Assembly (NCBI GenBank): GCA_963835575.1
Contig: CAWIGG010000005.1
Location: 174,206-238,205, forward strand
DNA length: 64,000 nt
Direction: 5' to 3'
Source of the DNA: an uncultured Spirochaetota bacterium
Lineage (GTDB): Bacteria > Spirochaetota > Brevinematia > Brevinematales > JAOACQ01
Within the stretch, counting starts at the first letter, position 1, and every line of letters begins with the position of its first letter. The notes under the pieces were generated by a model. It had not been told where the DNA came from. It ran no database searches and saw only the letters and a program-made list of their open reading frames with translations. The position numbers were made by a program, and so were the translations under genes. This document shows positions 11,045 to 63,937 of the stretch, piece by piece.

Positions 11045-12256
11045 TTATAATTGCCGGAGCGCTTCAGCAGGAGACATTTTTCTCGCGCGTCTTGCCGGTA
11101 TACATGCAGATATGGCTGAAACAATAATGGCCATTATAATGGCGATAAATAAAACCTGAATATCCGCAGAAGGATAAATGATCATATTTATCGGTATTTC
11201 TCTATTCTTCACCATACTGCTGAAATTAAGCCCTTTTACGGATGAATAAATGGTTAACAAATAACCCAGCAGGCTGCCGGATATACCGCCAAAACATCCG
11301 ATAAAAATTCCTTCCAGTGTGAAATTAAAGAAAATGTCGCGGTCGGTCATTCCCAGCGCTTTCAAAGTACCGATTTCCTTCATTCTTTCATAAACACTCA
11401 TAACCATAGTATTAACAATTACAAACGAAGCAAGCAGAAGGATTAACAGGAACAGGATATAAAAGGCATATAGAGTTTTCAACATGATATTGTAAAGTCC
11501 GCCGGTCTGTTGATCGGGGTCCTGTATAACCATTCCGGCAGGCAGCATTTTCCGGATTTCATTCTGCACCCTGGAAAGGTCAGCTTTCTTGCCGGTAAAG
11601 ATAGTGAGCTCTGTTATTCCATTTTGCATCTTGAGAAGTTTGCGCGCATTCTGAAGGTCTATAAAGAGAGTCCGTTTATCGATCATGCTGATACCAAAGC
11701 TGATAATTCCCTTTATTTTGAGCTTAATTCCGTTAAGTCCTCTTTCGGCGGTCGATGTAACCAATAAAATATCGTCGCCGATTTTAATCTTCATTTTTTC
11801 AGCCAGGCCCTCGCAGATATAAAGCCCTTCATCATCCAGTTTTCCCTGAGTTAATTTGTTTTCCAGATCAAAATATTTACTCCTGAGGTCCGCCCCCACT
11901 CCCAATGCCGGCTGCGTATTTTCTCCTTTTCCCAGAACGATGGCAAACCGGACCCGTTCTTCTACTAATAAGACACCCTTAATTTTACTGATTTTTACGG
12001 CTAAATCACCCGAATTGGGGATATAATCATCCACCGGCAGATAGCGTTCATATCTGACATAATCGGCAGTAGTCACCTTAAAATTCCCGGTCGTGTAATT
12101 AATAGTATTCCTCAAGACTCCGTTTACAGTACCGTTAAAAAAACCAATTCCAAATGTTACGGCAATCGTCGCAATGAAAACGGACAATGCCGTCAGCAGC
12201 GACCTTTTTTTATTCCGTAAGACATTCCTGACAGCGAATTTAATTAATGTAAACAC
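11045..12256 (-). CDS. FtsX/MacB-LolCE-type ABC permease, type-2 member of unit 3
   Basis: It is homologous over its full length to 13759-14961 and 16497-17708. The start is re-called at GTG 12256 (AAGGGGGA SD), 10 bp after the upstream stop. The track N-terminal extension overlaps the previous gene. A C-terminal FtsX 3-TM block is present, with the GTLKALGMTDRDI motif. Confidence 0.8.
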   Translation of the reverse strand: MFTLIKFAVRNVLRNKKRSLLTALSVFIATIAVTFGIGFFNGTVNGVLRNTINYTTGNFKVTTADYVRYERYLPVDDYIPNSGDLAVKISKIKGVLLVEERVRFAIVLGKGENTQPALGVGADLRSKYFDLENKLTQGKLDDEGLYICEGLAEKMKIKIGDDILLVTSTAERGLNGIKLKIKGIISFGISMIDKRTLFIDLQNARKLLKMQNGITELTIFTGKKADLSRVQNEIRKMLPAGMVIQDPDQQTGGLYNIMLKTLYAFYILFLLILLLASFVIVNTMVMSVYERMKEIGTLKALGMTDRDIFFNFTLEGIFIGCFGGISGSLLGYLLTIYSSVKGLNFSSMVKNREIPINMIIYPSADIQVLFIAIIMAIIVSAISACIPARRARKMSPAEALRQL

Positions 12257-12266
12257 ATCTTCCCCC

Positions 12267-13487
12267 TTATTGGACTTTTTTAAGGCAATCGGCGATTTCC
12301 AGCCTTGTCGCTTTTCTGGCGGGATAGTAGCTGGCAAGCGCGCTGAAAATAACTCCTACAATAAAGGGTCCCGCGATGGTCCCCGGGTCTAATTTAAATT
12401 TGACGATCCCCAGGACATTAAATCCGCTAATATTAGTGGTGCCGAAAATTGAAGTAATATCCAATCCTACTAAAGCCGGATAAAGGCATATAATAATACC
12501 GCACAGGATCCCGAATAAACTTCCAAAAAAGCCTATCATAAATCCCTCTAAAACAAAAAGGGTCTGGACTTCCCCATCGGTCATACCGAGGGCTTTCATA
12601 GTGCCGATTTCACGCTGCTTCTGATAAACCGATATGAGCATCGTGTTAATAATACCGATCAGTCCGATAATTGCTATGAAGAACAGAAAAATACTAAAAA
12701 TCTTTTCTCTGCTTTGCGTCTGGACAACCGTGTCCTCGCCCATCTTGATCCAATCATAGATATTATATCCCGGCAGCGACATTTTTAAATCGGGTTCAAA
12801 CCGGGCGTATTTGTGATAGTCTATTGTCTTAATCGCTATTTCCGAAACGCTATCGCTGTTCAAAAACATTAAAGCTTCATTCAGATTGATAAAAACTGCC
12901 GAATTATCCACCTGCGGATCCGGAGAGCTTATCAGACCGGTAATTTCAAGATCTATGGAGTCGATCGTATTCTGGCTGTTATGGAAAGTGATATAGACGG
13001 TATCTCCGACAGCAATGTTTAAGTTACTGGCCAGTATTTTCCCGATAACTGCGCCTCCGGGCCGAAGATTCCCTTCATAGATAAAATTAGTAAGCGAGAA
13101 AACCGAATTATCGGTTATCAGGTTGATTCCGGTAGCAATGATTGGAGCAGATACTCTTCCATTATCCAGGTCCGCTGTAAACTGGACCCTTTCGGTATAG
13201 GACTTGATGTAGGATTTGGTTCTGAGGACAGCCTCTACGGAACGGTAGTTGCTAATAAAATTACTGAGATCATAAGGGCTGTCTTCATCGAATGTCATAC
13301 TGCGGATCTTAAAATCCCCGGATTCAAACTGAATCTGGTTTTCAAAAGCCTGTGTGCTGAGGCCCTTTATAAATCCCATCATCAGGATATAAAGAGCAAT
13401 ACCGGCTGATAAAATAATGAATGTCAATAGAGTCCTGCGCTTATACCGCAGGATATTTTTAAGCGCCATTGAAAAAATGAATTTCAT
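12267..13487 (-). CDS. FtsX/MacB-LolCE-type ABC permease, type-1 member of unit 3
   Basis: The N-terminus is MKFIFSMALKNILRYKRRTLLTF. A large periplasmic domain lies between TM1 and TM2. The motif GTMKALGMTDGEV is present. It is a paralogue of 14972-16201 and 17719-18942. Confidence 0.85.
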   Translation of the reverse strand: MKFIFSMALKNILRYKRRTLLTFIILSAGIALYILMMGFIKGLSTQAFENQIQFESGDFKIRSMTFDEDSPYDLSNFISNYRSVEAVLRTKSYIKSYTERVQFTADLDNGRVSAPIIATGINLITDNSVFSLTNFIYEGNLRPGGAVIGKILASNLNIAVGDTVYITFHNSQNTIDSIDLEITGLISSPDPQVDNSAVFINLNEALMFLNSDSVSEIAIKTIDYHKYARFEPDLKMSLPGYNIYDWIKMGEDTVVQTQSREKIFSIFLFFIAIIGLIGIINTMLISVYQKQREIGTMKALGMTDGEVQTLFVLEGFMIGFFGSLFGILCGIIICLYPALVGLDITSIFGTTNISGFNVLGIVKFKLDPGTIAGPFIVGVIFSALASYYPARKATRLEIADCLKKVQ

Positions 13488-13758
13488 AGGAACTCCATGT
13501 ATTACAATTTATATATTGCTCGCGTTTGGTTCAAAAGCTGTCATTGCGAGTACCTGGTTTTTTCTTAGCAATTGACTATCGCACGAAGCAATCTGTCGAT
13601 AAAAAAAGCTAAGTTAACGTGCAGATAGATTGCTTCGCTTTAAAATATTCGGCAGAATATAAAGTCGGATGCTCGCAATGACGGTCTTTGTATTTAAATT
13701 CTTAAATTTTCAATAAACCTTGTTTAAACAATCTATTCAATCTGCCGTTAACACAACC
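13488..13758 (-). repeat. Conserved structured spacer 2 between permease units (nested inverted repeats plus a promoter-like motif)
   Basis: The outer stem pairs GTCATTGCGAG (13540-13550) with CTCGCAATGAC (13672-13682). The inner stem pairs CGAAGCAATCTGTC (13584-13597) with GATAGATTGCTTCG (13624-13637). On the minus strand there is TTGAAC-N17-TAAATT (13534-13506). The spacer is homologous end to end with 16202-16496. Confidence 0.8.
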
Positions 13759-14961
13759 TCACAGCTTCCTTAATGCCTCAGCCGGCATCAGCTTTCCGGC
13801 ATGCCGCGCGGGGTAGATCGTGGAAAGCGCCGGCACCAGAATGCTCAGAAAAATTGTTATCATAAGAACGTCCCAGCCCATCTGCGGACGGATGATATAC
13901 TCCATCGGCAGTGCAATTCCCTGCATCGCGAAGTCAAAATTAAAACCCACTTTGTTGAATATAAAATTAAATAAAAATCCGAGTAATCCTCCCAATATGC
14001 CGCCCATCGCGCCGATGATCCCTCCTTCCAGAATAAAATTAAGGAAAATCTCCCTGTCTGTCATTCCCATGGCCTTAAGAGTGCCGATCTCACGGGTCCT
14101 TTCAAAAATAGCCATCATCATCGTGTTGATCACGACAAACGATGCCAGAAATACGATGAGAGCGTAAATAAAATAGAAGATCCATTTGCCGGTATCCATA
14201 AAATCATAGAGATTCCCGAGCTGATCGCGGACATCCTGCACAGCCAGGCCTTCAGGGAGCATCTTTTTTATCAAATTTTTCACATTCCGGTCATTTCCCG
14301 CGTAAACAAGAAGTTCCGTAGTCCCTTTCTTTATTTTTAAAAGCTTCCTGGCATCATCAAGGCCGATAAAGAAAAACTGATCGTCGAACATTTCCATATT
14401 ATACTGAAAAATTCCCATGACCGGCAGTTTGATCCCGTTCAGCCCGCCCTCGGAAGTTTTTGTCGCCAGCAGAAGATTTTCGCCGAGTTTAACGCCCAGT
14501 TTCGCCGCCAGTTTCGTACCTATATAAATTCCGCTTTTCTCTATAGAACCCTCTTTTATTTTATCCTTCAGTTTCAACACGCTGTCTTTTAAATCTATCC
14601 CCATACCGAAAGCCGCAAAGGTTTTATCGCTATTTGCCAGCATAATACCGAACTTTATTCTTTCCTCAACCGATGATACTCCCGGTATTATTTTTATCTG
14701 CCCGGAAAGTCCCGACGAATTTTCGACTATTTCATCCACAGGTATGAATTTTTCCCTTTTGATAAAACCTTCGGTAATAATACGCATGTCGCCTGTTTGA
14801 TATCTTTTATAGTTGTCCAGCAGCATATCGATCATCCCGTTCATCCAGCCCATGGCCACGGCAACAATAAACGCGGCGGTAAAAACGGCGCTTGCCGTCA
14901 GGATGGTCCGTTTTCTGTTTTTTAACACATTGCGGAAAGCGAATTTTAAAATCATAAACAT
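13759..14961 (-). CDS. FtsX/MacB-LolCE-type ABC permease, type-2 member of unit 2
   Basis: The N-terminus is MFMILKFAFRNVLKNRKRTILTA, and GTLKAMGMTDREI is present. There is a 10-bp gap after the upstream gene's stop. Confidence 0.85.
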   Translation of the reverse strand: MFMILKFAFRNVLKNRKRTILTASAVFTAAFIVAVAMGWMNGMIDMLLDNYKRYQTGDMRIITEGFIKREKFIPVDEIVENSSGLSGQIKIIPGVSSVEERIKFGIMLANSDKTFAAFGMGIDLKDSVLKLKDKIKEGSIEKSGIYIGTKLAAKLGVKLGENLLLATKTSEGGLNGIKLPVMGIFQYNMEMFDDQFFFIGLDDARKLLKIKKGTTELLVYAGNDRNVKNLIKKMLPEGLAVQDVRDQLGNLYDFMDTGKWIFYFIYALIVFLASFVVINTMMMAIFERTREIGTLKAMGMTDREIFLNFILEGGIIGAMGGILGGLLGFLFNFIFNKVGFNFDFAMQGIALPMEYIIRPQMGWDVLMITIFLSILVPALSTIYPARHAGKLMPAEALRKL

Positions 14962-14971
14962 GACAGTACTC

Positions 14972-16201
14972 CTATTGAATTGTACGCAGGCATTCGGCCG
15001 CCTGCATCCGGGTTGTCTTTTTCGCCGGATAGTAACTGGCCAGGGTGCTGGCTATGACCGATAAAATGAAAGCGTAAATGAATGAAGGGATGTCCCATAC
15101 GGCCCGGATTGTGCCCGCCAGCCGCAAGGAAGCCATCATATTCTCGTTATTCTTCCCCACCATATCGGAAATACTATATCCGACGGCAACGAAATACCAG
15201 GTGACAAGCCCCCCCAGGATCAATCCCAGAATGCCTCCCAAAATGCCGATGATCAGCCCTTCCATGACAAACATGCCCTGCACTTCACTATCCGTCATGC
15301 CCATCGCCTTGAGCGTGCCGATCTCCCTTGTTTTTTCAAAGACCGACATCAGCATGGTGTTGACGATCCCGACAATGGCTATGATCGCTATGAATATGAC
15401 AAAGATATAGGTTGTAATCTCATCCTGCATCGCGGCCCCCTCGATAGCCTCTGTCAATTCCCTCCAGACGGCGATCTGGTTCTGAGGAAGGTCTTTTTTC
15501 AAGTCGGCGCGGTATTTTTTATCATTATTTAAGTCTTCGGTAATAACTGTTATGGCCGTAACCCAGCCGGTATTGAGATATTTCTTGGCGTCCGGGAGCA
15601 TGATATAACCCATGGAATTATTGACCATCGGATCGGTGGATTCGATGAGGCCTGTGACCTCAAATTCAACCGAATCTATCGTTCCCTGCCCGTTGCGGAA
15701 TGTGAAATAGACATAATCGTTTAGCGAGAGCCCAAGGTCATCGGCCAGGGCTTTTCCCAGCATAACGCCGCCTTCTTCCAGCTTTCCTTTGTAAATATAA
15801 TTGGTCAATGAAAAAACCTCAGGGTCGCTTTTCAGATCAATCCCGGTCAGAATGCATGGCATTGAATCCCGGCCGTTATCGGCGTCAACCTGGAATTGTA
15901 TCCTTTCGGTGTAAGCCTTTACGTATTTTTTTGTTTTTAAAACAGCCTCAACTTCCGCCGCGTTCTGCATAAAATTGGACACCGAATAGGGATCATCCTT
16001 GTCGAAATTGATGCTGCGGATCCTCAAATGCCCGGTGTCGAATTTGATATAATTATCGATGGACTGCTTTTTATATCCATGGACTATCCCGACCATCAGG
16101 ATATACAATGCGATGCCGACGGATAAAATGAAAAACGTCAATAGCGTCCTTCGCTTATACCTCAGGAGGTTTTTAAGCGCGAACGAAAAAATGAATTTCA
16201 T
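14972..16201 (-). CDS. FtsX/MacB-LolCE-type ABC permease, type-1 member of unit 2
   Basis: The N-terminus is MKFIFSFALKNLLRYKRRTLLTF, and GTLKAMGMTDSEV is present. AAGGAG SD precedes the ATG. Confidence 0.85.
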   Translation of the reverse strand: MKFIFSFALKNLLRYKRRTLLTFFILSVGIALYILMVGIVHGYKKQSIDNYIKFDTGHLRIRSINFDKDDPYSVSNFMQNAAEVEAVLKTKKYVKAYTERIQFQVDADNGRDSMPCILTGIDLKSDPEVFSLTNYIYKGKLEEGGVMLGKALADDLGLSLNDYVYFTFRNGQGTIDSVEFEVTGLIESTDPMVNNSMGYIMLPDAKKYLNTGWVTAITVITEDLNNDKKYRADLKKDLPQNQIAVWRELTEAIEGAAMQDEITTYIFVIFIAIIAIVGIVNTMLMSVFEKTREIGTLKAMGMTDSEVQGMFVMEGLIIGILGGILGLILGGLVTWYFVAVGYSISDMVGKNNENMMASLRLAGTIRAVWDIPSFIYAFILSVIASTLASYYPAKKTTRMQAAECLRTIQ

Positions 16202-16496
16202 AAGTACTCCTTGTCTTCTATATTATATAAAGTTAATGTTTGATTCAAAAAGCTGTCATTGCGAGCGCCCGGTTTTTTCTTAGCCATTGACTATCGCGCG
16301 AAGCAATCTGTCGGTAAAAAAAGATAACTTAACGTGCAGACAGATTGCTTCGCATTAAAATACTCGGCAGAGTATAAAGTCAGAAGCTCGCAATAGCCTG
16401 CCCTAAGCTTGCGAAGGGACGGACTTTGTGTTTAAATTCCTGGTTTTTCTGTAAGCCCTATTTAAACAATCTATTCAATTCACCGTTACCATATCC
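16202..16496 (-). repeat. Conserved structured spacer 1 between permease units
   Basis: The outer stem pairs GTCATTGCGAGC (16255-16266) with GCTCGCAAT (16386-16394). The inner stem is a perfect 14 bp, CGAAGCAATCTGTC (16299-16312) with GACAGATTGCTTCG (16339-16352). On the minus strand there is TTGAAT-N17-TAATAT (16248-16220). It carries an extra ~28-bp insertion relative to spacer 2. Confidence 0.8.
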
Positions 16497-17708
16497 CTAC
16501 AGCTTCCTCAATGCCTCCGCCGGCATAAGCTTCCCGGCGCTCCTGGCTGGGATCATGGCCGCCAGGCTTGATATAATAACAGCCGCCAAGATTGCAATAA
16601 TCAATACGTCAATTCCTATATACGGGCGGACCACAAAGTTAAAGGGAAGGTCCATATTCTTTGCCTGCTCGAAACTCAAACCGGTGACGCTTAAACTCAG
16701 CACGATCAGGTAGCCCAGAACCCCTCCGGGCAAAGCGCCTATCGTCCCAATGATGGCCCCTTCGAGGGTGAAGCTGTTAAATATATCCCTGTCGGTCATT
16801 CCCATCGCTTTCAGGGTGCCGATCTCGCGCATTCTCTCGAACACGGCCTGCATCATAGTGCTTATGATCACGAAGGAAGCGAGCAGAATAACCATCAGGT
16901 CGAAGAAATAATAAATATATCTTGCCGTTTGAAGCAGGTCGTACAAACCGCCAACCTGTTCCTCGATATTTCTGACTGTATCCGGTTCCGGCAGGATGGC
17001 AGATATCTTTCCCTGGACCTCCGGTATGGAATAGTCTCTCTTCGTAAAGACAAGGACCTCGGTGTCCAGGTCCTGCATTTTTAATAACTTCCTCGCGTTT
17101 GCCATGTCCAGGTAGAAGAATTTACTGTCGAACATCCCCACGCCGAAACTCAATAATCCCTTTACGCGTACCTTGATACCGTTCAGTCCCCCGTATGTCG
17201 TTTTCGTGGCCAGCAGGATTTGATCCCCCGCCTTCAGATTGAGTTTGCCCGCGAGGGTATAACCTAAATAAAGCCCTTCCTTTTCAAGCGAACCCGGTTT
17301 TATTATTTTGTTTGAGAGATCGAGCCTCGGGCTGTTCAAATCGGCACCGATACCGAACGCCGGGACCGTATTCTGGTCGTTTCCCAGGAGAATGCCGAAC
17401 CTTATTCTTTCCTCAACCGTGTCCACCCCGGGGATCTTTTTGATCTTATCCGCCAGTTGATCCGCGCCGGTCATCGTTTCATCGACCGGCAGGAATTTTT
17501 CATATTTGACATAGTCCTTTGTAGTGACTTTAAGATTCCCTGTCTGATAATCAACATAATTGCTGTCGAAATTATCCAGAAAACCGTTCAATATCCCGAT
17601 CATCAGCGCTATGACTATGGCCCCGGTAAAAATCGAAGCGGCGGTCAATAGAGATCTTCTGCTGTTCCTGAAAACATTTTTAAAAGCGAATTTGAAATTG
17701 GAACCCAT
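16497..17708 (-). CDS. FtsX/MacB-LolCE-type ABC permease, type-2 member of unit 1
   Basis: The start is re-called at MGSNFKFAFKNVFRNSRRSLL (ATG 17708), 10 bp after the upstream stop. The track extension (MPVITRPIRP...) overlaps the previous gene. GTLKAMGMTDRDI is present. Confidence 0.8.
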   Translation of the reverse strand: MGSNFKFAFKNVFRNSRRSLLTAASIFTGAIVIALMIGILNGFLDNFDSNYVDYQTGNLKVTTKDYVKYEKFLPVDETMTGADQLADKIKKIPGVDTVEERIRFGILLGNDQNTVPAFGIGADLNSPRLDLSNKIIKPGSLEKEGLYLGYTLAGKLNLKAGDQILLATKTTYGGLNGIKVRVKGLLSFGVGMFDSKFFYLDMANARKLLKMQDLDTEVLVFTKRDYSIPEVQGKISAILPEPDTVRNIEEQVGGLYDLLQTARYIYYFFDLMVILLASFVIISTMMQAVFERMREIGTLKAMGMTDRDIFNSFTLEGAIIGTIGALPGGVLGYLIVLSLSVTGLSFEQAKNMDLPFNFVVRPYIGIDVLIIAILAAVIISSLAAMIPARSAGKLMPAEALRKL

Positions 17709-17718
17709 ATCATCCTCC

Positions 17719-18942
17719 TTACTGGATAGTCCTGAGGCATTCCGCCGGCTGGAGCTTCGCGGTCTTATTGGCCGGGTAATAACTGGCAATAACGCTGACG
17801 ATCAGGCTGACTATGACGGCCCTGAAAATGGCGCCGGTATCCCAGCCTGCCTTGACAACGCCCATGACCTTGTATCCTAAGTCCAAATTGGACGAACCTA
17901 TTAAGGCAGTTATATCCATTCCGTAAACCGCAAAATAAAGATTGAGCAGAATGCCAGCGGCCAGCCCAATGAGGTTCCCCAGGACCCCGATCAAAAGGCC
18001 TTCGAAGACGAATACGGTCTTTATTTCGCCGTCGGTCATTCCCAGCGCCTTCATGGTCCCGATTTCTCTTTTCTTCTCGAATACCGACATCAGCATTGTG
18101 TTGATGATGCCGATAACCGCTATGATGGCTATGAAAAACAGGAGAAACCCGATGGCCTTCGCTTTTGCCTGGCCGATAGCCAGGAAATCCTGGCCGAGCC
18201 TCTCCCAGTCATATACTTTCATGCCCGGGAAGCTTTTGACAAGATCGGGCTCATATTTTTTGAATTCCCTGTAATCCTCCGTTTTCAATACCAGTTCCGT
18301 GACCCTGTCGGTGTTGAGAATACGCTGGGCGTCGGTTATATTTATATATATGCTGGAATTATTGACCTGAGGGTCAGGCGAATTTATGATGCCGGCGACA
18401 TTGAGCTCAACAGAGTCGTACGTGCCCTGCGCGTTCCGGAAGGTAACGAATACCTGGTCCCCTATCGTTACATTCATGTCTTTCGCCAGGTTCTGTCCCA
18501 GGACCGCCCCATCCTTTTCAAGCCCGCCTTTAATTATGAAGTTTGTAGTTGTGAATACGGAATCCTCCCGTTCGGGATTTATCGCAATAACGATGATGGG
18601 GGAAGTTGACTTGCCGTTATCAAGGTCGGCGGTAAAACTCAGGCGTTCAGTGTAGCTTTTTACATAAGGTTTCGTTTTCAATATATTTTCAGCCGCCATG
18701 TAGTTTTTTATAAAATTGCTGATTTCAAGGGGACTGTCTTCGTCAAAAACACCGCTCCTGATCTTGAAATCCCCCGTCTCGAACTGGATCTGGTTCTCAA
18801 ACGATTTATCATCGAACCCCTTTAAAAGGCCGGCCATGACGATGAAGATCATAATGCCGAACAACAGGACCAGGGCTGTCAGCGCCGTTCTTCTTTTATA
18901 TCGTATAACGTTTTTAAACGCGATCGAAAAAAGATACTTCAT
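17719..18942 (-). CDS. FtsX/MacB-LolCE-type ABC permease, type-1 member of unit 1
   Basis: The N-terminus is MKYLFSIAFKNVIRYKRRTALTA, and GTMKALGMTDGEI is present. The gene starts 13 bp after the ATPase stop. Confidence 0.85.
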   Translation of the reverse strand: MKYLFSIAFKNVIRYKRRTALTALVLLFGIMIFIVMAGLLKGFDDKSFENQIQFETGDFKIRSGVFDEDSPLEISNFIKNYMAAENILKTKPYVKSYTERLSFTADLDNGKSTSPIIVIAINPEREDSVFTTTNFIIKGGLEKDGAVLGQNLAKDMNVTIGDQVFVTFRNAQGTYDSVELNVAGIINSPDPQVNNSSIYINITDAQRILNTDRVTELVLKTEDYREFKKYEPDLVKSFPGMKVYDWERLGQDFLAIGQAKAKAIGFLLFFIAIIAVIGIINTMLMSVFEKKREIGTMKALGMTDGEIKTVFVFEGLLIGVLGNLIGLAAGILLNLYFAVYGMDITALIGSSNLDLGYKVMGVVKAGWDTGAIFRAVIVSLIVSVIASYYPANKTAKLQPAECLRTIQ

Positions 18943-18955
18943 GGAAGACCTCCTT

Positions 18956-19648
18956 CTATTCGCCTTTACCCTTCACATCGCTTTCAATATGCCCGTCGCG
19001 GATATTGATCAGGCGCCTGGCATGCTTCATGATCATCTGATCATGCGTGGAAAAGACAAAGGTGACGGCTTCCTTGCCGTTCATCTCCTGCATCAGATGA
19101 ACAATGGCTTCCCCGTTGACCGTGTCCAGGTTCGCCGTCGGCTCGTCCGCCAGGATCATCTTGGGTTTTTTCACGAGCGCCCGCGCGATCGAGACCCGCT
19201 GCTGCTGTCCGCCGGAAAGCTCAAGAGGCTTCCGGTTATCGAGGCCTGTCAGGCCGACTTCGTCCAGGACTTCCATCACTCTTTTTTTTATTTCGGCATC
19301 GCTGTATTTTTTCAAAAGCTTCAGCGGCAGTTCGATATTCTCATAGGCCGTCAGGACCGGAATAAGGTTATAAGTCTGAAAAATGAACCCGAAATATTCC
19401 CTCCGGAGATGCGCCAGCTCATCGGAAGTTTTGCCCATCAGGCTCACATTATCCAGGAGCACCTCACCTCCGTCGGCCCTATCGATGCAGCCGATGATAT
19501 TCAGCAGCGTAGTCTTGCCGGAGCCGGACGGCCCGCAGATAGCGGTGAACTCGCCCTTGCCGATCTCCACATTTATATCGTGTAAAGCTTGAAAATCGAC
19601 CTTGCCGGTATGGTAGACCTTGTTCAGTTTTTTAACCTCTAAAAGCAT
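18956..19648 (-). CDS. ABC transporter ATP-binding protein, LolD/MacB-NBD type
   Basis: Motifs are Walker [11 protein letters not shown]-loop, [15 protein letters not shown], Walker [12 protein letters not shown] and H-loop STHD. The start is set at [12 protein letters not shown] because GAGGAGG lies 5 nt upstream; the track start at 19663 sits inside that SD. Confidence 0.9.
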
Positions 19649-19722
19649 AAATGACCTCCTCATTTAACTTTATTGTTTCATGCAAAGACTTGGCAGTCTT
19701 TGCGTATTCACATGCATTTTAT

Positions 19723-20830
19723 TTACAATTTCGCTTCCAGCCTTAAATCGACTGCGTATTCCCCAAGAGTGTCGCGCGAAAACTCCTGGCTCTCCTTTCC
19801 CGTAATAAACATAAAAAGAAAAGTCAAATCCAAACCGTCAGACAGCGTATATGTAACAGACGGCATAATAAGACTGCTCAGATCAATCAGATTCCAGAAG
19901 ATGTTCAGCTGGAAATTGAGAAATTCATCATATGTATACATGATATTTCCGTACAGATAATGTTTGGCTGAAAAATAAACATCCTCCTGATTCATGGACT
20001 TGTAATCATTGGTTTTTTCCGCGCCTCTTTCATCATAATAATAAGTCAGCGCCGTTATCAATTTTCCGTCCAGAAAGTTATAGTCTATTCCGATGCTCGC
20101 TTCATTAAAACGATTTGTGAAATAATCATCAAAGTGATAGGCATAGGACACATTGACGCCGACTTCCATATCCCCTTTGAGATAGAAGCCGATAACATTC
20201 GTGTTTAATCCTTTGCGGTTATAAACAATGCCTTCGTCAAAGTGCATCCAGTTTCCGAAAAGGCTTCCGCCGACGGCGCTATTAGTCAAACCTCCCTGAG
20301 GAGCGGTATAAATTTTTAATCCCGACAGGTCATTGATACTAGCCTCATAGAGTACGGCAAGCATTCCTTCCTTGTCATATGACAGATCGTTAAAATTGAT
20401 CGACTTTGACATCTCAAAAGGATTAAAAATCCCGAAATTCCCGAAGTTCACGTATGTCTTGCCGACTGTCCAGATCCCGATATGCGAAATCATATCGTAT
20501 AAATGCCCTGAGAAGATCCAGCCCGTAGTTCAGCGGTATATTTGAGGGAATTCCCGCATTTGTCCCGGGAGACCCCGCGCCAGCATTGGCAAGACCGGCC
20601 GCTATATCACCATAATAAGCGTATATCCTCAAATCCGCGTAAAACCGCCAATCATCCGTTTTCCGGGAAAAGACAAGCTTATTCTCCAGGATATCGGAAA
20701 AGGAATACGCATTGGTTGTTTTTAATACAATCGCGTCATTCCTGATCCCGCCTGAAAGATCAATTGTCCCATATAAACCCGGCGCGGCAGCGGCAAACAC
20801 CAGGATCATGATTAATATTTTCAGCTTCAT
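19723..20830 (-). pseudogene. Signal-peptide beta-barrel-like outer-membrane protein, split by an apparent 1-nt frameshift near 20490-20500
   Basis: ORF 20830-20423 carries the signal MKLKILIMILVFAAAAPGLYG and ends ...LDLLRAFIRYD in sensible sequence. ORF 20493-19723 continues ...ISHIGIWTVGKTYVNFGNFGIFNPFE in the +1 frame and has no signal of its own. It shows alternating aromatic/hydrophilic strands and ends in a terminal ...RLEAKL. Confidence 0.55.
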
Positions 20831-42516: not shown

Positions 42517-44438
42517 GTGCGCCCGGCAGGGCGCACGTTCTTGGAGGTTAAAGTCCTCTATGCACCCGGTAAGGGGAATCCCTCACCAGTTTGTGAACTT
42601 CTCCGGGCAGCCGGACAAACTGGTGAGGGACAGACGGCAAGGGTGTCCGCCGTGAGGCGGAATCTGAAGGAAGCCGGAGGCAAAACGCTGGCCTGACGAA
42701 CAGAAACCGCAAATAAGGCGTTTATGTTGGATAAGACGGCCAATATCGTTAAAGTCCGATACTTACACGGAAAACGTAGGCGTAAATGCGGCAGGTATAA
42801 GCGGGAAGGAACGAGCGTATTACCCGGGGAGATCTGGAAATCCGCTACATATTAGCTATTGTCATTGAAAGGTGATGAGAGGGATTTTCAGAAGTCGGCA
42901 GAAGCCATAGTAGCTTCTTGACCGGAAGTGAAGGGCAGAACCAAAATGTAGGAGTACCGCTATGAATCCTGATACGGTAATTTGCGCAGAAGCGAATGAA
43001 GACCATTTGGCTTTGACAGAAAATAGGGACGGAATCCCGAAGAAGAGTCAAAGTGCGTGTATCCGTACAGAGAGGCAAAGAAGGAGTACACCGGATGAAA
43101 ACAATCTAATCGAGCATCTGGTCAAACGCGAGAACATGCTGGAAGCCTATCACAGAGTGGTAAGCAGCAAAGGCTCGGCGGGAATTGACGGAGTAACGGT
43201 CGAAAGAATGAAAGATGACGTTAATAACCGGTGGGCTGAAATCAAAGTCAAATTGCTGGAAGGAAGATACAAACCGAAGGCGGTAAAAGGAGTGCAAATT
43301 CCGCAAACGAATGGCGGGGTTCGTCAATTGGGAATCCCGACGGTAATGGATCGACTGATACAGCAAGCATTTTATCAGGTGCTGAGTCCAATCTTCGAAC
43401 CGGGATTTTCGGAATTGAGTTATGGCTTTCGTCCCGGAAAAAGGGCACAACAAGCCATAGCGAAGTCAAGAGAATATCAGGAGACCGGGAAACGATGGGT
43501 TGTAGATATGGATTTAGCGAAATTTTTCGATGAAGTTGACCACGATATCCTAATAGCGAGGATAAAGCGAAAAGTCAGGGATAAGAAAATCCTGAAACTG
43601 ATTGCCTCGTTTCTCAAAGCCGGAATGATGACGGATAATAAAATCACGGCGAGGAAAAAGGGAACACCACAAGGTGGAAATCTGTCTCCATTATTAGCGA
43701 ATATTATACTGGATGACCTTGACAAGGAATTAGAACAAAGAGGACATAGCTTTTGCCGGTATGCTGATGACTGCAATATATACGTTAAAAGCAGGAAAGC
43801 CGGAGAAAGAGTGATGGACTCGATATCCAGATTTGTTGAGGAAAAGTTGAAGCTGAAAGTGAATCGTGATAAAAGCGCCGCAGCAAGGCCGTGGGAAAGA
43901 AAATTTCTCGGTTACTCATTTACAAGTGAGAAGAAAACAAGGATTCGGGTAGCAATGGAATCGAAAGAAAAACTCAAGAAGAATCTGAAAGAAGTGTTCA
44001 GGAAAGTACAGGGACGAAATCTGAAAGAATTCATCAGGAAAGAATTAAACCCAAAAATTCGCGGATGGATAAATTATTTTATCATTGCGAATGTAAAAGA
44101 TTTTACTGACGATATGGATGGATTCGAAGGAAACTACGATGTGCGCTATGGAAACAATGGAAAAGACCCTGGACAAGAAGAAAGCGGCTGATTGAAGCTG
44201 GGCTAAAAGAAGAGCAAGCAGTGGCAAGTACTTTCAACCAGAGAGGCTCGTGGTGGAATTCCGGGGCAAAACATATGAATCTTGTCTTTCCGAAGAAATA
44301 CTTTGATAGTATGGGTCTTGTATCAATGCTGGATACGATTTGTAATTATCAGAAATTAAATTTTGGAACCGCCGTATACGGAACCGTACGTACGGTGGTG
44401 TGAGAGGTCGGCGGGTGTGAACCCGCCTCCTACTCGAT
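42517..44438 (+). mobile_element. Bacterial group II intron (class-C-like), ~1.9 kb
   Basis: The 5' end is GTGCG (42517-42521). An RT/maturase ORF lies in domain IV. A domain V-like hairpin (CCGCCGTATACGGAACCGTACGTACGGTGG) is at ~44368-44398. A domain VI helix GAGAGG..GGCGGG-tgtgaa-CCCGCC.CCT[A]CTC has a bulged A 7 nt before the proposed 3' end ...GAT (44438). Confidence 0.8.
42962..44403 (+). pseudogene. Group II intron reverse transcriptase/maturase, frameshifted near 44114-44122
   Basis: RT motifs are GIDGVTV, RQLGIPTVMDRLIQQA, SYGFRPGKRAQQA, DLAKFFDEVDHD and YADDCNIYV. The maturase motif is IRGWINYF. The open frame ends in nonsense (FEGNYDVRYG...). The expected continuation WIRRKLRCALWKQWKRPWTRRKRL...GTAVYGTVRTVV* lies in the +2 frame and runs to TGA 44401-44403. 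Confidence 0.85.
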
Positions 44439-61689: not shown

Positions 61690-63505
61690 GATACCGCTGA
61701 AAAATGCATTAACATACATTGCTGTAATTATATTAATGTGTCATAATATTTAACATAATTAATTGCAGGGTAATAAAATGAGTTTAAAAAGACATAGCCA
61801 GGATGAACTATATTCGGTAACTAATTTGATGTCGGATTTACTTGAAGAAACAAACCCATTAAAGATATTTTCCAGGGAAATATATCCCATATTTCATGAT
61901 GGGGATTTTAAACATTTATACTCCAGGAAAGGACGCAATGGAATATCACCGGCATTTCTATCAATGGTTACCATTCTGCAATATTTTGATTCTCTGTCAG
62001 ACTCAGAAGCAGCGGAAGCTGTGTATTTGCGGCTGGATTGGAAATACGCATTACATTTGCCGATCGAGAAAGTTTTCATTTTTGACTCTAGCACACTCTG
62101 TAATTTCAGAAAGCGTTTTCGGAATAATGGAGAAGAAAATAACGCCTTTAAGAAAATGGTGGAGTTTTGCCGGGAAAAAGGTTTGATTAAAAGTAATTCA
62201 CACCAGCGTATTGACGCGACTCATATTGTAAAACATTTAAACCGGATATCAACGACAGAACTACTCTTCAGAACTGTGCGAGTATTACTGGAAGTATTAG
62301 AAAGAAATAATCCCGTGTGGTATGAAGAAAATATTCCAGCGGATTTGATTGAACGCTACTCAAAGAAATTCAGTTCATTCGGGATGTCAAAGGGGAAGAG
62401 ATCGGACAAGCAGGCGGAGATTGTGGAAGATGGCTATCGAATAACGCGGATGATTGAGGGTTCTAAGATAGAAAATGAAGAAGTCTTGAAACAGCTAAAA
62501 ATAATGAAAACCGTATTTCAGGAAAATGTGATCATTCGAGAAAAAGAAGTAGGTGAAAAAGTGTTTATAGAAGTGGATGAAATAGAAAAGCCGATGCAGA
62601 GCGTAATTGACCCGCGGGATACAACCATTCAATTAGGAAAGAAAGGAAAAACAAGCTGGTCAGGCGAGAAATGCCATATCGTTGAAACAGCAAACAAAGG
62701 CGAGGTGAATTTCATAGTTGATATGATACCACAATCAAACAAGGAAAATGACAATAAAATATTACCGGAATTGGATAGAAGGAATGAAAATTCAAAATTA
62801 AATCCGAAGAAAATCTTTGCGGATAGCAATTATATCAGCAGCAGCGCGATTAAAGAATATGAAGATAAAGACCAGGTACTGATGGGATATATACAAAAAA
62901 CTTCAAACGAAGTTCCGGCAGAATTCAGATTGGATAAATTTTCAATAGATATTCAAAACCGGAAAGCTGTCTGTCCGGCAGGAAAGACGAATGATTCCTG
63001 GAATTTTAGTGAGAAAAGTAATTCGTATCAAGTGTCCTTTCACATGAAACATGCGGAAATTGTATAAATTATGGGTTATGTGTCAGAAGAACAAGTAAAA
63101 AGTGCGGGGGGCGAAAATTATGTATCACAAAAGAATACACAACTTTGTGCAAGCGGAGAGAAGAACAAAAGACCGATAAATTTAAAGAAGAAATGAAAGT
63201 TCGGGCACAAGTTGAATCGACGATAAGCGCACTGGTTCGATTTCATGGTTTAAGAATGATGAAATATAAAGGAGAATCAGGCCGTTCTCAGCAATATTAC
63301 ATGGCAGCCTGTGCTTTAAATTTAAAGAGATTTGTCAAAAAGTTAGTTTTAGAGATGAATTAAGGGAATTATGAAGTAGAATCATCTACTTTTATTTGGA
63401 TTTGGCGTCATTTTTGTTTTTGTGTCTTCAAGTGTTCAATTTTTTAAATCTTGAAGTTATCTAAGGAAATCGGTTTTTGTAAAGGTGCTATTTTTCAGCG
63501 GTATC
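61690..63505 (+). mobile_element. IS1182-like (IS5-superfamily) insertion sequence, 1816 bp
   Basis: The terminal IR is GATACCGCTGAAAAAT (61690-) and its reverse complement (-63505). A 6-bp direct duplication ATCCTT lies at 61684-61689 and 63506-63511. Confidence 0.8.
61778..63363 (+). pseudogene. IS1182-like transposase with one frameshift near 63035-63065
   Basis: The N-terminal module is GRNGISPAFLSMVTILQYFDSLSDSEAAEAVYLRLDWKYALHL. The frame ends ...SFHMKHAEIV*. The expected Cys-rich continuation ETCGNCINYGLC...KRREEQKTDKF...YMAACALNLKRFVKKL is in another frame and runs to 63363. Confidence 0.75.
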
Positions 63506-63693: not shown

Positions 63694-63737
63694 GGCCGGT
63701 CCCTGAGTAGCCCGAAGGGCGTATCGAAGGACCGGCT
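63694..63737. repeat. Hairpin GGCCGGTCC...GGACCGGC carrying the same CCTGAGTAGCCCGAAGGGCGTATCGAAGGA module
   Basis: The core matches 24049-24079 apart from a 1-nt indel. Different stem sequences enclose it. Confidence 0.65.
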
Positions 63738-63877
63738 GCGGGCAAAACTACGCCCTCTGTGGGATGCCCTGTGTTTCAATCCATAATTTAGGAAGTACCG
63801 CATCCGGAAAAGTTTATTCTATGCCCCGCCGGGGGACAATATTGAAGGAAAAATAAAAAAAAAGTAGATACAAAAGC

Positions 63878-63937
63878 GTCATTGCGAGCGTCATACTTGC
63901 TCCTTTGCCGCTGACTTCAGCGCGAAGCAATCTGTCG
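63878..63937. repeat. Third (partial) copy of the GTCATTGCGAGC / CGCGAAGCAATCTGTCG repeat family
   Basis: It shares both left half-sites with the permease-unit spacers. The DNA between the half-sites differs. The window ends before a right half could appear. Confidence 0.6.

Follow-up and report, generated by a model that had tools for sequence, protein, structure and literature searches.

The locus

The window, by which we mean the whole 64-kb stretch of DNA that was analysed, carries on its minus strand an operon for an ABC ATPase and three MacB/FtsX permease pairs, recognised by Pfam matches and an orthology table. The spacers between the pairs were delimited on the ORF map.

11045..19663, minus strand: host operon, ABC ATPase plus three MacB/FtsX permease pairs
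18956-19663, minus strand: ABC ATPase gene, first in the operon
17719-18942 and 16497-17708, minus strand: permease pair A3 and B3, respectively
16202..16496 (295 nt), minus strand: spacer 2, from the B3 stop to the A2 start
14972-16201 and 13759-14961, minus strand: permease pair A2 and B2
13488..13758 (271 nt), minus strand: spacer 1, from the B2 stop to the A1 start
12267-13487 and 11045-12256, minus strand: permease pair A1 and B1

The three pairs are old paralogs, with a separate set of orthologs for each, and the permeases share 45-53% protein identity and ~55% DNA identity, which agrees with the considerable divergence noted in a preliminary description of this DNA. That description also had the spacers homologous from stop codon to start codon and at least as similar as the flanking coding ends. 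Both statements hold: an end-to-end alignment gives 225 identities in 271 aligned positions (83%), against 78-80% for the coding ends adjoining the spacers. Identity is highest in a 147-nt core (13533-13679 versus 16248-16394), where 133 of 147 positions agree (90.5%); non-core spacer DNA is 67-76% identical, with 82 of 113 positions identical in the flanks of the core.

Anatomy of the palindromic repeat

Each spacer is built round one REP/BIME-like palindromic repeat of ~150-180 nt, located by inverted-repeat and motif searches together with folding.

13533..13690, no strand: palindromic element copy 1, in spacer 1; boxes A 13540-13550, B 13584-13597, B' 13624-13637 and A' 13672-13682; side hairpin 13645-13660
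16248..16428, no strand: palindromic element copy 2, in spacer 2; boxes A 16255-16265, B 16298-16312 and B' 16339-16353; A' split into 16387-16394 and 16418-16420
16395..16417, no strand: 23-nt insert AGCCTGCCCTAAGCTTGCGAAGG, seen as an alignment gap, splitting the right outer arm of copy 2
13726..13745, no strand: two degenerate B-box-like motifs, AAACAATCTAT and TCAATCTGC, in the stop-codon-side flank (inverted-repeat search); also in spacer 2, 16464-16472
63878..63937, plus strand: third copy, a single unit with CGTC head, A box, 34-nt insert and B box, downstream of an insertion sequence (IS)

The repeat is a 'heads-out' dimer. Its unit consists of a [C/T]GTC head, ATTGCGAG (the A box), a variable insert, CGAAGCAATC (the B box) and a short tail; the two A boxes pair with each other to form the outer stem and the two B boxes to form the inner stem. 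The head is TGTC at 13539 and 16254 and CGTC at 63877, and GACG follows 13682. Nested stems had been described for both spacers. In spacer 1 the outer arms are indeed both exact (GTCATTGCGAG at 13540-13550 and CTCGCAATGAC at 13672-13682), but in spacer 2 the insert, itself a small CCCT...AGGG hairpin module, separates CTCGCAAT (16387-16394) from GAC (16418-16420) in the right arm, and the contiguous outer stem is only 9 bp. The 14-bp inner stem is likewise present, though in spacer 1 (13584-13597 with 13624-13637) it contains a single G-T mismatch. About 100 nt of each spacer is left over beyond the palindrome. The degenerate B-box-like motifs give a spacer the appearance of a patchwork of decayed units.

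The third copy, reported before as left half-sites in unrelated intergenic DNA, has both left boxes exact (63878-63888 and 63923-63936), but it is a single unit: no right half appears in the remaining sequence up to 64000, the end of the window. The repeat thus occupies three loci in the 64-kb window, where motif matches number 4 and 6 against 0.75 and 0.42 expected, counts reached in 0 of 100 shuffles.

Folding and expression signals

The isolated element folds far better than shuffled sequence (z = -6.1 to -6.4), and folding is strong for both strands (copy 1, z = -6.4 on the plus strand and -4.2 on the minus strand). Whole spacers fold little better than shuffles (z about -1.7) and the third unit (63878-63937) no better. 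Between the two copies there is one compensatory change, in the side hairpin (ATATTC/GAATAT in copy 2 versus ATACTC/GAGTAT in copy 1). Since the plus strand, which is antisense to the operon, gives more stable folds than the strand of the mRNA (-57.0 versus -45.0 and -65.6 versus -61.4 kcal/mol), selection for mRNA structure is not favoured.

Two -35/-10-like pairs had been taken as a possible internal promoter.

13506..13534, minus strand: promoter-like pair TTGAAC-N17-TAAATT in spacer 1, 8/12 consensus, not significant
16220..16248, minus strand: promoter-like pair TTGAAT-N17-TAATAT in spacer 2, 8/12 consensus, not significant; alternative TTGAAT-N15-TATAAT

The pairs exist, but an equal or better match turns up in 11-19% of shuffles of those 53-nt segments at N17 spacing (28-45% at N16-18), such sites occur once per ~300 nt across the window, and a promoter scan listed neither pair. 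An internal sigma-70 promoter finds no support, the 8/12 boxes being no better than chance.

In coding-strand orientation the outer stem lies between CAAAGAC and AGCUUUU(U)G, the sequence running ...CUCGCAAUGAC AGC UUUU(U)G and matching the A-rich run upstream. The U run after the hairpin is short (4-5) and partly paired. A terminator scan, which takes loops of 3-8 nt only, did not flag the element, and Rfam gave no match to it, whether the gathering threshold was applied or E values up to 10 were allowed.

Insertion in one lineage

The orthologous operons nearest to this one, L175 and L180, have B3 and A2 only 18 and 20 nt apart, respectively, with no spacer; identity to the window is 86% (L175) and 83% (L180) for A3, and 82% for the L175 ATPase. 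Since these operons join the same genes by 18-20 nt, the spacers are lineage-specific insertions, and did not belong to the ancient duplicated unit. Upstream synteny is kept, and on the downstream side it is lost precisely at spacer 1: relatives have an MGS gene after B2 and carry the A1-B1 pair at different loci. The repeat and ~100 nt of partly repeat-derived sequence entered a tight intercistronic junction in this Brevinematales-like lineage only.

Comparison with the empty L175 and L180 junctions revealed no recognisable target-site duplication, and no clean element boundary could be defined there either. The neighbouring IS (61763-63363, DUF772 plus DDE_Tnp_1_6) was not seen to share the boxes of the repeat. 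Two classes of element do not fit these observations: a MITE from a DDE insertion sequence, which should show a target-site duplication and terminal inverted repeats shared with a cognate IS, and a conserved cis-regulatory RNA, which is missing from the orthologous position in L175 and L180 and has no Rfam match.

Copying between the junctions

Sliding-window comparison of the two junctions outlines a pair of tracts.

13368..13803, minus strand: co-converted tract, comprising the start of A1 (~40 codons), spacer 1 and the end of B2 (~15 codons)
16082..16541, minus strand: partner tract, comprising the start of A2 (~40 codons), spacer 2 and the end of B3 (~15 codons)

Identity is 0.70-0.92 in the tracts against a background of ~0.55, and at third codon positions 0.57-0.59 inside against 0.33 outside. 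High identity continues past the spacers, for ~120 nt in the downstream gene and ~45 nt in the upstream one, and falls with distance from the element on both sides, third codon positions included in each case. A1 and A2 of the window both have TLLT, MKFIFS and GIALYILM where their respective orthologs differ. The B2-type C-terminus of one relative (L176) likewise ends AGKLMPAEALRKL, so the protein-level case for conversion of the B2 end is weaker than the DNA-level case.

Because the homology spills into the coding ends, third positions included, we conclude that one junction was copied onto the second, paralogous one, as opposed to two independent insertions; the copied segment comprised the repeat, ~120 nt of the 5' end of the next gene and ~45 nt of the 3' end of the previous gene. 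Copying would have occurred by gene conversion or by double-strand-break repair anchored in the conserved gene ends, probably when, or after, the third permease pair joined the operon. The converted coding ends are about as diverged (third-position identity 0.57-0.59) as the window genes are from their L175 orthologs (0.40-0.57).

Comparing spacer with coding identity, as the preliminary description had advised, sets the palindromic core (90-91%) well above the co-converted coding ends at their third codon positions (57-59%). The core kept 90% identity while neighbouring near-neutral sites dropped to ~57-76%, and as it is better conserved than flanks and third positions alike, it has probably been constrained or repeatedly re-homogenised.

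A cosmopolitan repeat family

The family follows the pattern [C/T]GTCATTGCGAG, variable hairpin, CGAAGCAATC, loop and mirror image, and is cosmopolitan. The motif pair is present in 74 viral contigs and in at least 94 genome stretches, from more than 10 phyla; the earlier suggestion of a dispersed repeat was correct. Of 277 units, 157 have C and 109 have T immediately before the A box, and the fetched loci contain 134 inverted dimers, the two orientations counted separately. Elsewhere the repeat is multi-copy, as in at least nine contigs of one Zixibacteria MAG and with six copies in one Pedobacter locus. Pairing within a unit is only 5 bp (ATTGC/GCAAT), and this stem covaries to ATTCT/AGAAT in a sister family. 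Inserts are 4-57 nt long (~33 nt in the window), and among those that reach 18 nt or more, 40% fold at z < -2. The triplet that follows GAAGCAATC is most commonly TCA (20), CAG (17) or TCC (13) in the unbiased viral set, giving a tail of CTC or CCA once the last C of the box is included; the window has CTG. Though conserved in more than 10 phyla, the motif pair GTCATTGCGAG...GAAGCAATC was found in neither Rfam nor the REP literature searched.

The closest described relatives are the CGTC-tagged REPs, which a survey (Di Nocera, De Gregorio and Rocco 2013, PMC3733652) presents as dimers, mostly intergenic, probably transcribed and with no known transposase, in a superfamily that takes in Neisseria dRS3 and Rickettsia RPE-4/6. 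Our repeat shares with them a [C/T]GTC head unpaired at one unit end, a stem beginning AT, perhaps a short tail of CCA or CTC type after the stem (the superfamily consensus being CCA, and the window having CTG), a preponderance of inverted dimers able to form one large hairpin, and an intergenic distribution over several phyla without an associated transposase. It differs in its 5-bp within-unit stem (8-9 bp in theirs) and in a 'loop' of 4-57 nt, often itself a hairpin (4-5 nt in theirs). The families catalogued in the survey encode VIPAKAGI, VIAGLDPAIH, VIPWLDHGI and other peptides, unlike those of the present family (VIAS, LAMT, ARND and others), which are missing from its list of intragenic CGTC-1 to CGTC-4 units, supplements included. 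The repeat resembles the superfamily and, judged by its encoded peptides, matches none of CGTC-1 to CGTC-4; it may equal the 'Bradyrhizobium CGTC-1 with variable loops' mentioned there (PMC3733652).

Like the REP/BIME elements of Escherichia coli, the element is a palindromic repeat in a transport operon, presumably co-transcribed with it, and its function here is putative. Intercistronic E. coli examples such as malE-malF reportedly block 3'-5' decay and bring about unequal expression of the flanking genes. Those REPs are GTAG-type, tied to RAYT transposases and experimentally shown to function, whereas the present element is ~150 nt long with nested stems. In REPIN-RAYT systems an inverted REP pair is said to be the non-autonomous unit, and long members of our family similarly have a small nuclease gene flanked by inverted units of the same kind. 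The enzyme, however, is a stand-alone GIY-YIG (UPF0213/Slx1-like) nuclease and not a HUH tyrosine transposase. No RAYT-like gene was found among the window genes examined, and REPIN-RAYT membership was rejected on the head (CGTC/TGTC, not GTAG) and on the recurrent GIY-YIG neighbour. The Correia elements (CREE) of Neisseria are MITEs of ~100-155 bp that form hairpins, are co-transcribed, can bring promoter-like boxes and RNase III sites, and show TA target duplications as well as defined inverted repeats at their ends. Ours too is a hairpin-forming repeat inserted beside genes, but neither a target duplication nor a functional promoter was demonstrable here.

Association with a GIY-YIG nuclease

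In longer members of the family (L153, L169, L146) the small GIY-YIG nuclease gene occupies the palindrome's central loop. CGTC-type units lie at most 160 nt from such a gene in 7/7 loci of a protein-selected viral-contig sample. They also lie beside it in 10/10 annotated plasmid or chromid records from Alpha-, Beta- and Gammaproteobacteria, Cyanobacteria and Bacteroidota, most of which have an inverted pair round the gene. In Azospirillum, Sinorhizobium and Neisseria the REP flanking the nuclease gene resembles the type given for that organism in PMC3733652, the type being read from the sequences. Within the 64-kb window a search for the GIY-YIG gene gave no match (best E 1.6).

We suggest tentatively, at slightly less than even odds, that the spacer hairpin is the gene-less form of a widespread two-part system in which CGTC/TGTC-headed REPs, the dRS3 and CGTC-1 to CGTC-3 families included, are substrates of a ~95-aa Slx1-like GIY-YIG nuclease that they flank 'heads-out'. 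The nuclease, observed to be associated with CGTC REPs, may also be their 'missing' mobilising enzyme. It would cut the extruded hairpin or cruciform in a structure-specific manner, and homology-directed repair would then produce homing-like copying with co-conversion of flanks, the pattern seen at both operon junctions. Free-standing GIY-YIG endonucleases (T4 Seg, I-TevI) cause an insertion to be copied into a homologous 'empty' site, with flanking markers co-converted. The co-converted flanks at the two operon junctions resemble this; T4 Seg and I-TevI differ in having DNA-binding domains and long asymmetric sites, whereas the enzymes of the family are minimal domains, and none was found here.

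Alternative explanations

Overall we consider it likely that a REP/BIME-like repeat was inserted in one lineage and that the junction was then copied to the paralogous junction, with a presumed effect on the operon. The element would be transcribed within the operon as a long hairpin with a few U residues after it on the coding strand, and its likeliest effect, as for a REP/BIME or Correia-type element, would be that of a 3'-exonuclease barrier or a leaky terminator uncoupling the three permease pairs. The preliminary description had proposed instead either an ancestral, selected cis-regulatory unit (a processing or attenuation hairpin with an internal promoter) duplicated with the permease pairs, or MITE-like repeats that invaded both junctions or mediated the duplications. 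Its observations are confirmed in part and its interpretation is supported in part. An ancestral unit would account for the stop-to-start homology, the conservation of the core above its flanks and the compensated side hairpin, and the conserved core is what survives of that proposal. We nevertheless think it very improbable: its absence from the orthologous L175 and L180 junctions largely refutes such an origin, the paralogs long predate the spacers (45-53% protein versus 83% spacer identity), Rfam is silent, the promoter boxes are at chance level, and the module turns up in unrelated settings and phyla as well. The second proposal comes nearer: the repeat is dispersed and has inverted ends, a further unit lies in unrelated DNA, and synteny is broken at spacer 1. 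Two independent insertions into preferred sites are nonetheless unlikely, as they would not homogenise flanks, and the shared flanks, extending beyond the palindrome into non-repeat spacer DNA (67-76%) and both coding ends with raised third-position identity, count against them, as do the derived residues common to A1 and A2.

Co-option of the hairpin as a partial bidirectional intrinsic terminator or RNA-stability element, grading the three permease pairs and with its core kept by selection, is a serious possibility but a rather doubtful one. The A-rich and U-rich sequences bordering the coding-strand outer stem fit it, as does a core 90% identical beside third positions diverged to ~57%, and REP/BIME elements are reported in PMC3733652 to lie mostly between co-directional or convergent genes and to be probably transcribed. 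It has to contend with the short, partly paired U run, the negative terminator scan, the better folding of the antisense strand, the insert that breaks the outer stem of copy 2, and covariation that is minimal because there are two copies only. That the similarity arose in assembly or binning, for instance from a repeat that was collapsed or chimeric, is scarcely credible. An independent Logan contig from the same genome does end at 13684, the hairpin edge, but that same contig matches spacer 1 at 100% over 197 nt; 46 of the 271 aligned positions distinguish the two spacers, as does a 23-nt indel, and all reading frames bordering them are intact.

Significance

The spacers are young insertions of a selfish-type palindromic repeat, not conserved regulatory architecture, and they record both gene conversion between paralogous junctions and the presence of a repeat at a point of rearrangement. 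This is of use in understanding how multi-module transporter operons are assembled, and in annotation, because such repeats break assemblies and seed spurious ORFs. The 2013 survey presents CGTC-tagged REPs as repeats without a dedicated transposase (PMC3733652). The small nuclease gene of the longer relatives may be what moves the repeat, and its recurrence between CGTC-type units offers a concrete, testable candidate for the enzyme that CGTC REPs have been missing.

Two spacers in a permease operon

The operon opens with an ABC ATPase gene followed by three MacB/FtsX-type permease pairs in the order A3/B3, A2/B2, A1/B1, and two gaps interrupt its otherwise tight gene array.

18956-19663, minus strand: ABC ATPase gene, first gene of the operon
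16202-16496: spacer 2 (295 nt), B3 stop codon to A2 start codon
13488-13758: spacer 1 (271 nt), B2 stop codon to A1 start codon

The homology of the spacers noticed in the preliminary description is confirmed: from the stop of one gene to the start of the next they align at 83% identity, with a common 147-nt core at 90.5%, whereas the permease paralogs share just 45-53% protein identity and ~55% DNA identity. Downstream of B2 in the window come spacer 1, A1-B1 and then an unrelated ABC-2 transporter. An independent Logan contig of the same genome (L001) stops at 13684, the outer edge of the copy-1 hairpin, where repeats or palindromes may have broken the assembly. Between a LolA-like gene and the ATPase gene, 19723-20830 contains two overlapping ORFs (19723-20493 and 20423-20830); the counterpart at three loci of relatives (L175, L173, L178) is one ORF of 356-365 aa, which suggests a frameshift or sequencing error.

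Palindromic element. Each core carries an element with an outer stem (A/A' boxes) and an inner stem (B/B' boxes). The nested stems reported for both spacers hold in spacer 1, with exact outer arms and one G-T mismatch in the inner stem, but in spacer 2 the right outer arm, CTCGCAAT followed by GAC, is interrupted at that point by a 23-nt insert (16395-16417). The conserved boxes, 47 nt in all, contain just one of the 14 core differences between the copies; two of the 14 compensate each other in a side hairpin. Folded alone, the copy 1 element gives z = -6.4 on the + strand and -4.2 on the - strand, and copy 2 gives -4.0 and -3.4, so that in both copies in the window (n = 2) the antisense strand folds better than the mRNA strand. 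The stop-side flank of either spacer holds degenerate B-like boxes, and the spacers thus resemble small BIME-style mosaics. The copy-2 insert (GCCCTAAGCTTGCGAAGGGAC) is similar to a short hairpin motif, CCCTGAGTAGCCCGAAGGGCG..., at 63700-63735, and related CCTGCC...GGCAGG modules are nested within family members of other genomes (L117, L141, L112); small palindromes of this type appear to insert into one another.

The supposed third copy, at 63878-63937, is there as a single left unit, the window ending 63 nt beyond it. Just upstream, at 61763-63363, lies an IS-type transposase in two ORFs (DUF772 N-terminal, DDE_Tnp_1_6 C-terminal), probably decayed or frameshifted. Elsewhere in the window, Rfam matches to domains D1-D4 and the catalytic core (141.5, 61.6 and 49.3 bits) indicate a group II intron on the + strand at 42646-44438.

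Promoter-like boxes. The proposed -35/-10 pairs exist as strings but find no support as promoters: they match the consensus at just 8/12 positions, were not listed by the promoter scan, and do no better than 11-19% of the sequences obtained by shuffling their own 53-nt segments.

Insertion and copying between junctions

Orthologous junctions. The source organism is closely related to Brevinematales MAGs. The permease triplication is old, since the three A paralogs have separate sets of orthologs. Among orthologous operons L175 and L180 come closest, and their A3 proteins are 86% and 83% identical to that of the window. In L175 the ATPase is 82% identical and the upstream genes follow the window's order gene for gene. 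The B3-to-A2 junction is just 18 nt in L175 and 20 nt in L180, B2 is followed in both by an MGS gene, and the A1-B1 orthologs are found at other loci in relatives (L171, L173). The spacers are therefore lineage-specific insertions, and because the neighbor of B2 differs, being the MGS gene in L175 and L180 and spacer 1 with A1-B1 in the window, spacer 1 sits at a rearrangement junction. The stand-alone occurrence of A1-B1 elsewhere in relatives also implies that the three-module operon arose through rearrangement and not from tandem duplication in place. What precedes that unit (window 11045-13487) in L171 and L173 is an ATPase gene of its own or a gene for an HTH regulator. A search for spacer homologs in ~150 kb of relatives' loci returned only the Logan contig of the source genome itself.

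Conversion. High identity runs past the spacers before dropping to background: it also covers the first ~120 nt of A1 and A2 and the last ~45 nt of B2 and B3. The first 40 codons of A1 and A2 share 0.82 of their amino acids and 0.57 of their third positions, against 0.46 and 0.33 in the rest of the genes; over the last 16 codons of B2 and B3 the values are 0.94 and 0.59, against 0.47 and 0.33. The window's A1 and A2 have MKFIFS, TLLT and GIALYILM in common where their respective orthologs differ, and past residue ~38 each reverts to its own ortholog type. The raised identity of the coding ends and the shared residues show that one junction, with its insertion, was copied onto the other, probably by gene conversion or break repair, and they disfavor a separate insertion at each junction. 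The copying is not recent, as third-position identity of the converted ends (0.57-0.59) is near that between the window and its L175 orthologs (0.40-0.57). Identical positions number 133/147 in the palindromic core and 82/113 in the remaining spacer, so the core has been either constrained or re-homogenized since conversion.

These results bear on both earlier readings. A spacer belonging to the duplicated, selected unit is contradicted as to origin by the old triplication together with the spacer-free junctions of L175 and L180. A MITE-like repeat invading the junctions or mediating the duplications is right as to a dispersed repeat, lineage-specific and located at a rearrangement point, but the junctions were not invaded independently. 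Against the element being a selected mRNA structure count the broken outer stem of copy 2 and the orthologous operons that manage with no spacer; the better folding of the antisense strand, in just two copies, leans the same way. An effect on expression may be inferred by analogy: REP/BIME and Correia elements are reported to act as decay barriers or leaky terminators, and in the mRNA strand the outer stem has CAAAGAC upstream and AGCUUUU(U)G downstream, which makes a decay barrier or a leaky, bidirectional terminator plausible here.

A dispersed repeat family

Distribution. The GTCATTGCGAG...GAAGCAATC pair is present in 74 viral contigs, and a narrower ...CTGTC subfamily in at least 94 stretches of a species-representative genome collection, with listed hosts including Bacteroidota, Ignavibacteria, Zixibacteria, Omnitrophota, Chloroflexi, Nitrospiria, Elusimicrobia, Patescibacteria, Melainabacteria, Clostridia, and Alpha- and Gammaproteobacteria. 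Megablast of the window against the 94 loci of this collection gave no match. A metagenome scan with a subfamily-specific pattern gave 0 matches, and a second scan just two copies, both of high GC and without relation to the subfamily seen in the window. Rfam returned nothing on the elements at the gathering threshold (whole window and 12 repeat-family loci) or at E up to 10 (13400-16600), and full-text searches with the box sequences found unrelated primer matches only. As candidate identities, attC sites, IS200/IS605 ends, small ribozymes and CRISPR repeats were set aside, since the motifs that define them are all absent. The family is cosmopolitan, and its description was not found in the literature searched.

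Architecture. Members share the outer stem A/A' and inner stem B/B', with variable, often hairpin-forming inserts between. Of 277 units (from loci L077-L170 and L003-L076), 266 have C or T just before the A box. Inserts of 18 nt or more fold at z < -2 in 40% of cases, and insert hairpins are more stable on the 5'-CGTC...GAAGCAATC strand (102 versus 57 units, p = 4e-4). Fold polarity is a property of the single unit, not of the whole element or dimer, and fits own-strand recognition of each arm better than one functional transcript. A sister family (L187:870-1000 and 1330-1450; L192) reads TGTCATTCTGAG...GAAGAATCTC, with ATTCT/AGAAT in place of ATTGC/GCAAT, a double compensatory change that supports A-B box pairing within the unit. 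In one phage group (IMG/VR contigs L005, L033 and L048) a conserved ORF of ~180-190 aa terminates within a repeat unit (...GNEIATPSARND*), and ribosome-binding sites directly follow other units; repeats here seem to border phage genes or cut them short.

Among described classes the CGTC-tagged REP superfamily comes closest, with a CGTC/TGTC head, AT-starting stem, short tail and inverted dimers, known from several phyla and apparently lacking a dedicated transposase (PMC3733652). The stems and loops of our family fall outside that superfamily's criteria, and the peptides predicted for our family are not in the CGTC-1 to CGTC-4 lists of PMC3733652, so we file it as a sibling family rather than a member of any of those four. 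In kind, the spacers themselves are unremarkable: REP/BIME-like palindromic repeats sitting inside an operon.

REP-flanked GIY-YIG genes

Clustering of the ORFs close to family members brings out a small GIY-YIG protein (PF01541, E = 1.9e-17) weakly matching PDB 1ZG2, a UPF0213 protein. At three loci its gene occupies precisely the central loop, giving the arrangement A-B, gene, B'-A':

L153:1073-1655
L169:1535-1944
L146:4594-5072

These and the genes at L181-L197 are stand-alone, ~95 aa and UPF0213/Slx1-like. Seven viral-contig loci (L181-L187) were chosen by protein similarity alone, and all seven have [C/T]GTCAT-headed palindromic units within 160 nt of the gene, as an inverted pair around it in the most clearly resolved (L182-L184, L187). 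Units also lie beside the gene in 10/10 annotated records examined (L188-L197: Azospirillum, Neisseria, Novosphingobium, Sinorhizobium, Planktothrix, Spirosoma, Aeromonas, Photobacterium, Rhizobium, Sphingobium), as a heads-out pair around it in most and on one side only in Photobacterium. REP-flanked GIY-YIG genes thus span Alpha-, Beta- and Gammaproteobacteria, Cyanobacteria and Bacteroidota; in Azospirillum lipoferum 4B, gene and units are inserted between sufB and sufC. Further REP-flanked examples include A. lipoferum AZOLI_RS22735 and, on pSymB of S. meliloti, a gene with gltA and lpxB as its neighbors. By our reading of the sequences, the flanking units in Azospirillum, Sinorhizobium and Neisseria would be the REP type catalogued there by the 2013 survey. 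There is no such gene in the window, nor a homolog in ~150 kb of relatives' loci.

The REP/REPIN/RAYT literature found does not mention GIY-YIG, we found no prior report linking the two, and the COG2827/UPF0213/YhbQ literature held nothing relevant on such a link. The accessible portion of a 2006 GIY-YIG phylogenomics paper takes stand-alone bacterial Slx1-like proteins as vertically inherited and is silent on repeats beside their genes.

The history of the spacers is instructive: the insertion is lineage-specific, one paralogous junction was converted from the other, and a rearrangement point coincides with spacer 1. The part worth pursuing is the recurrent link of the repeat family to a minimal GIY-YIG nuclease.
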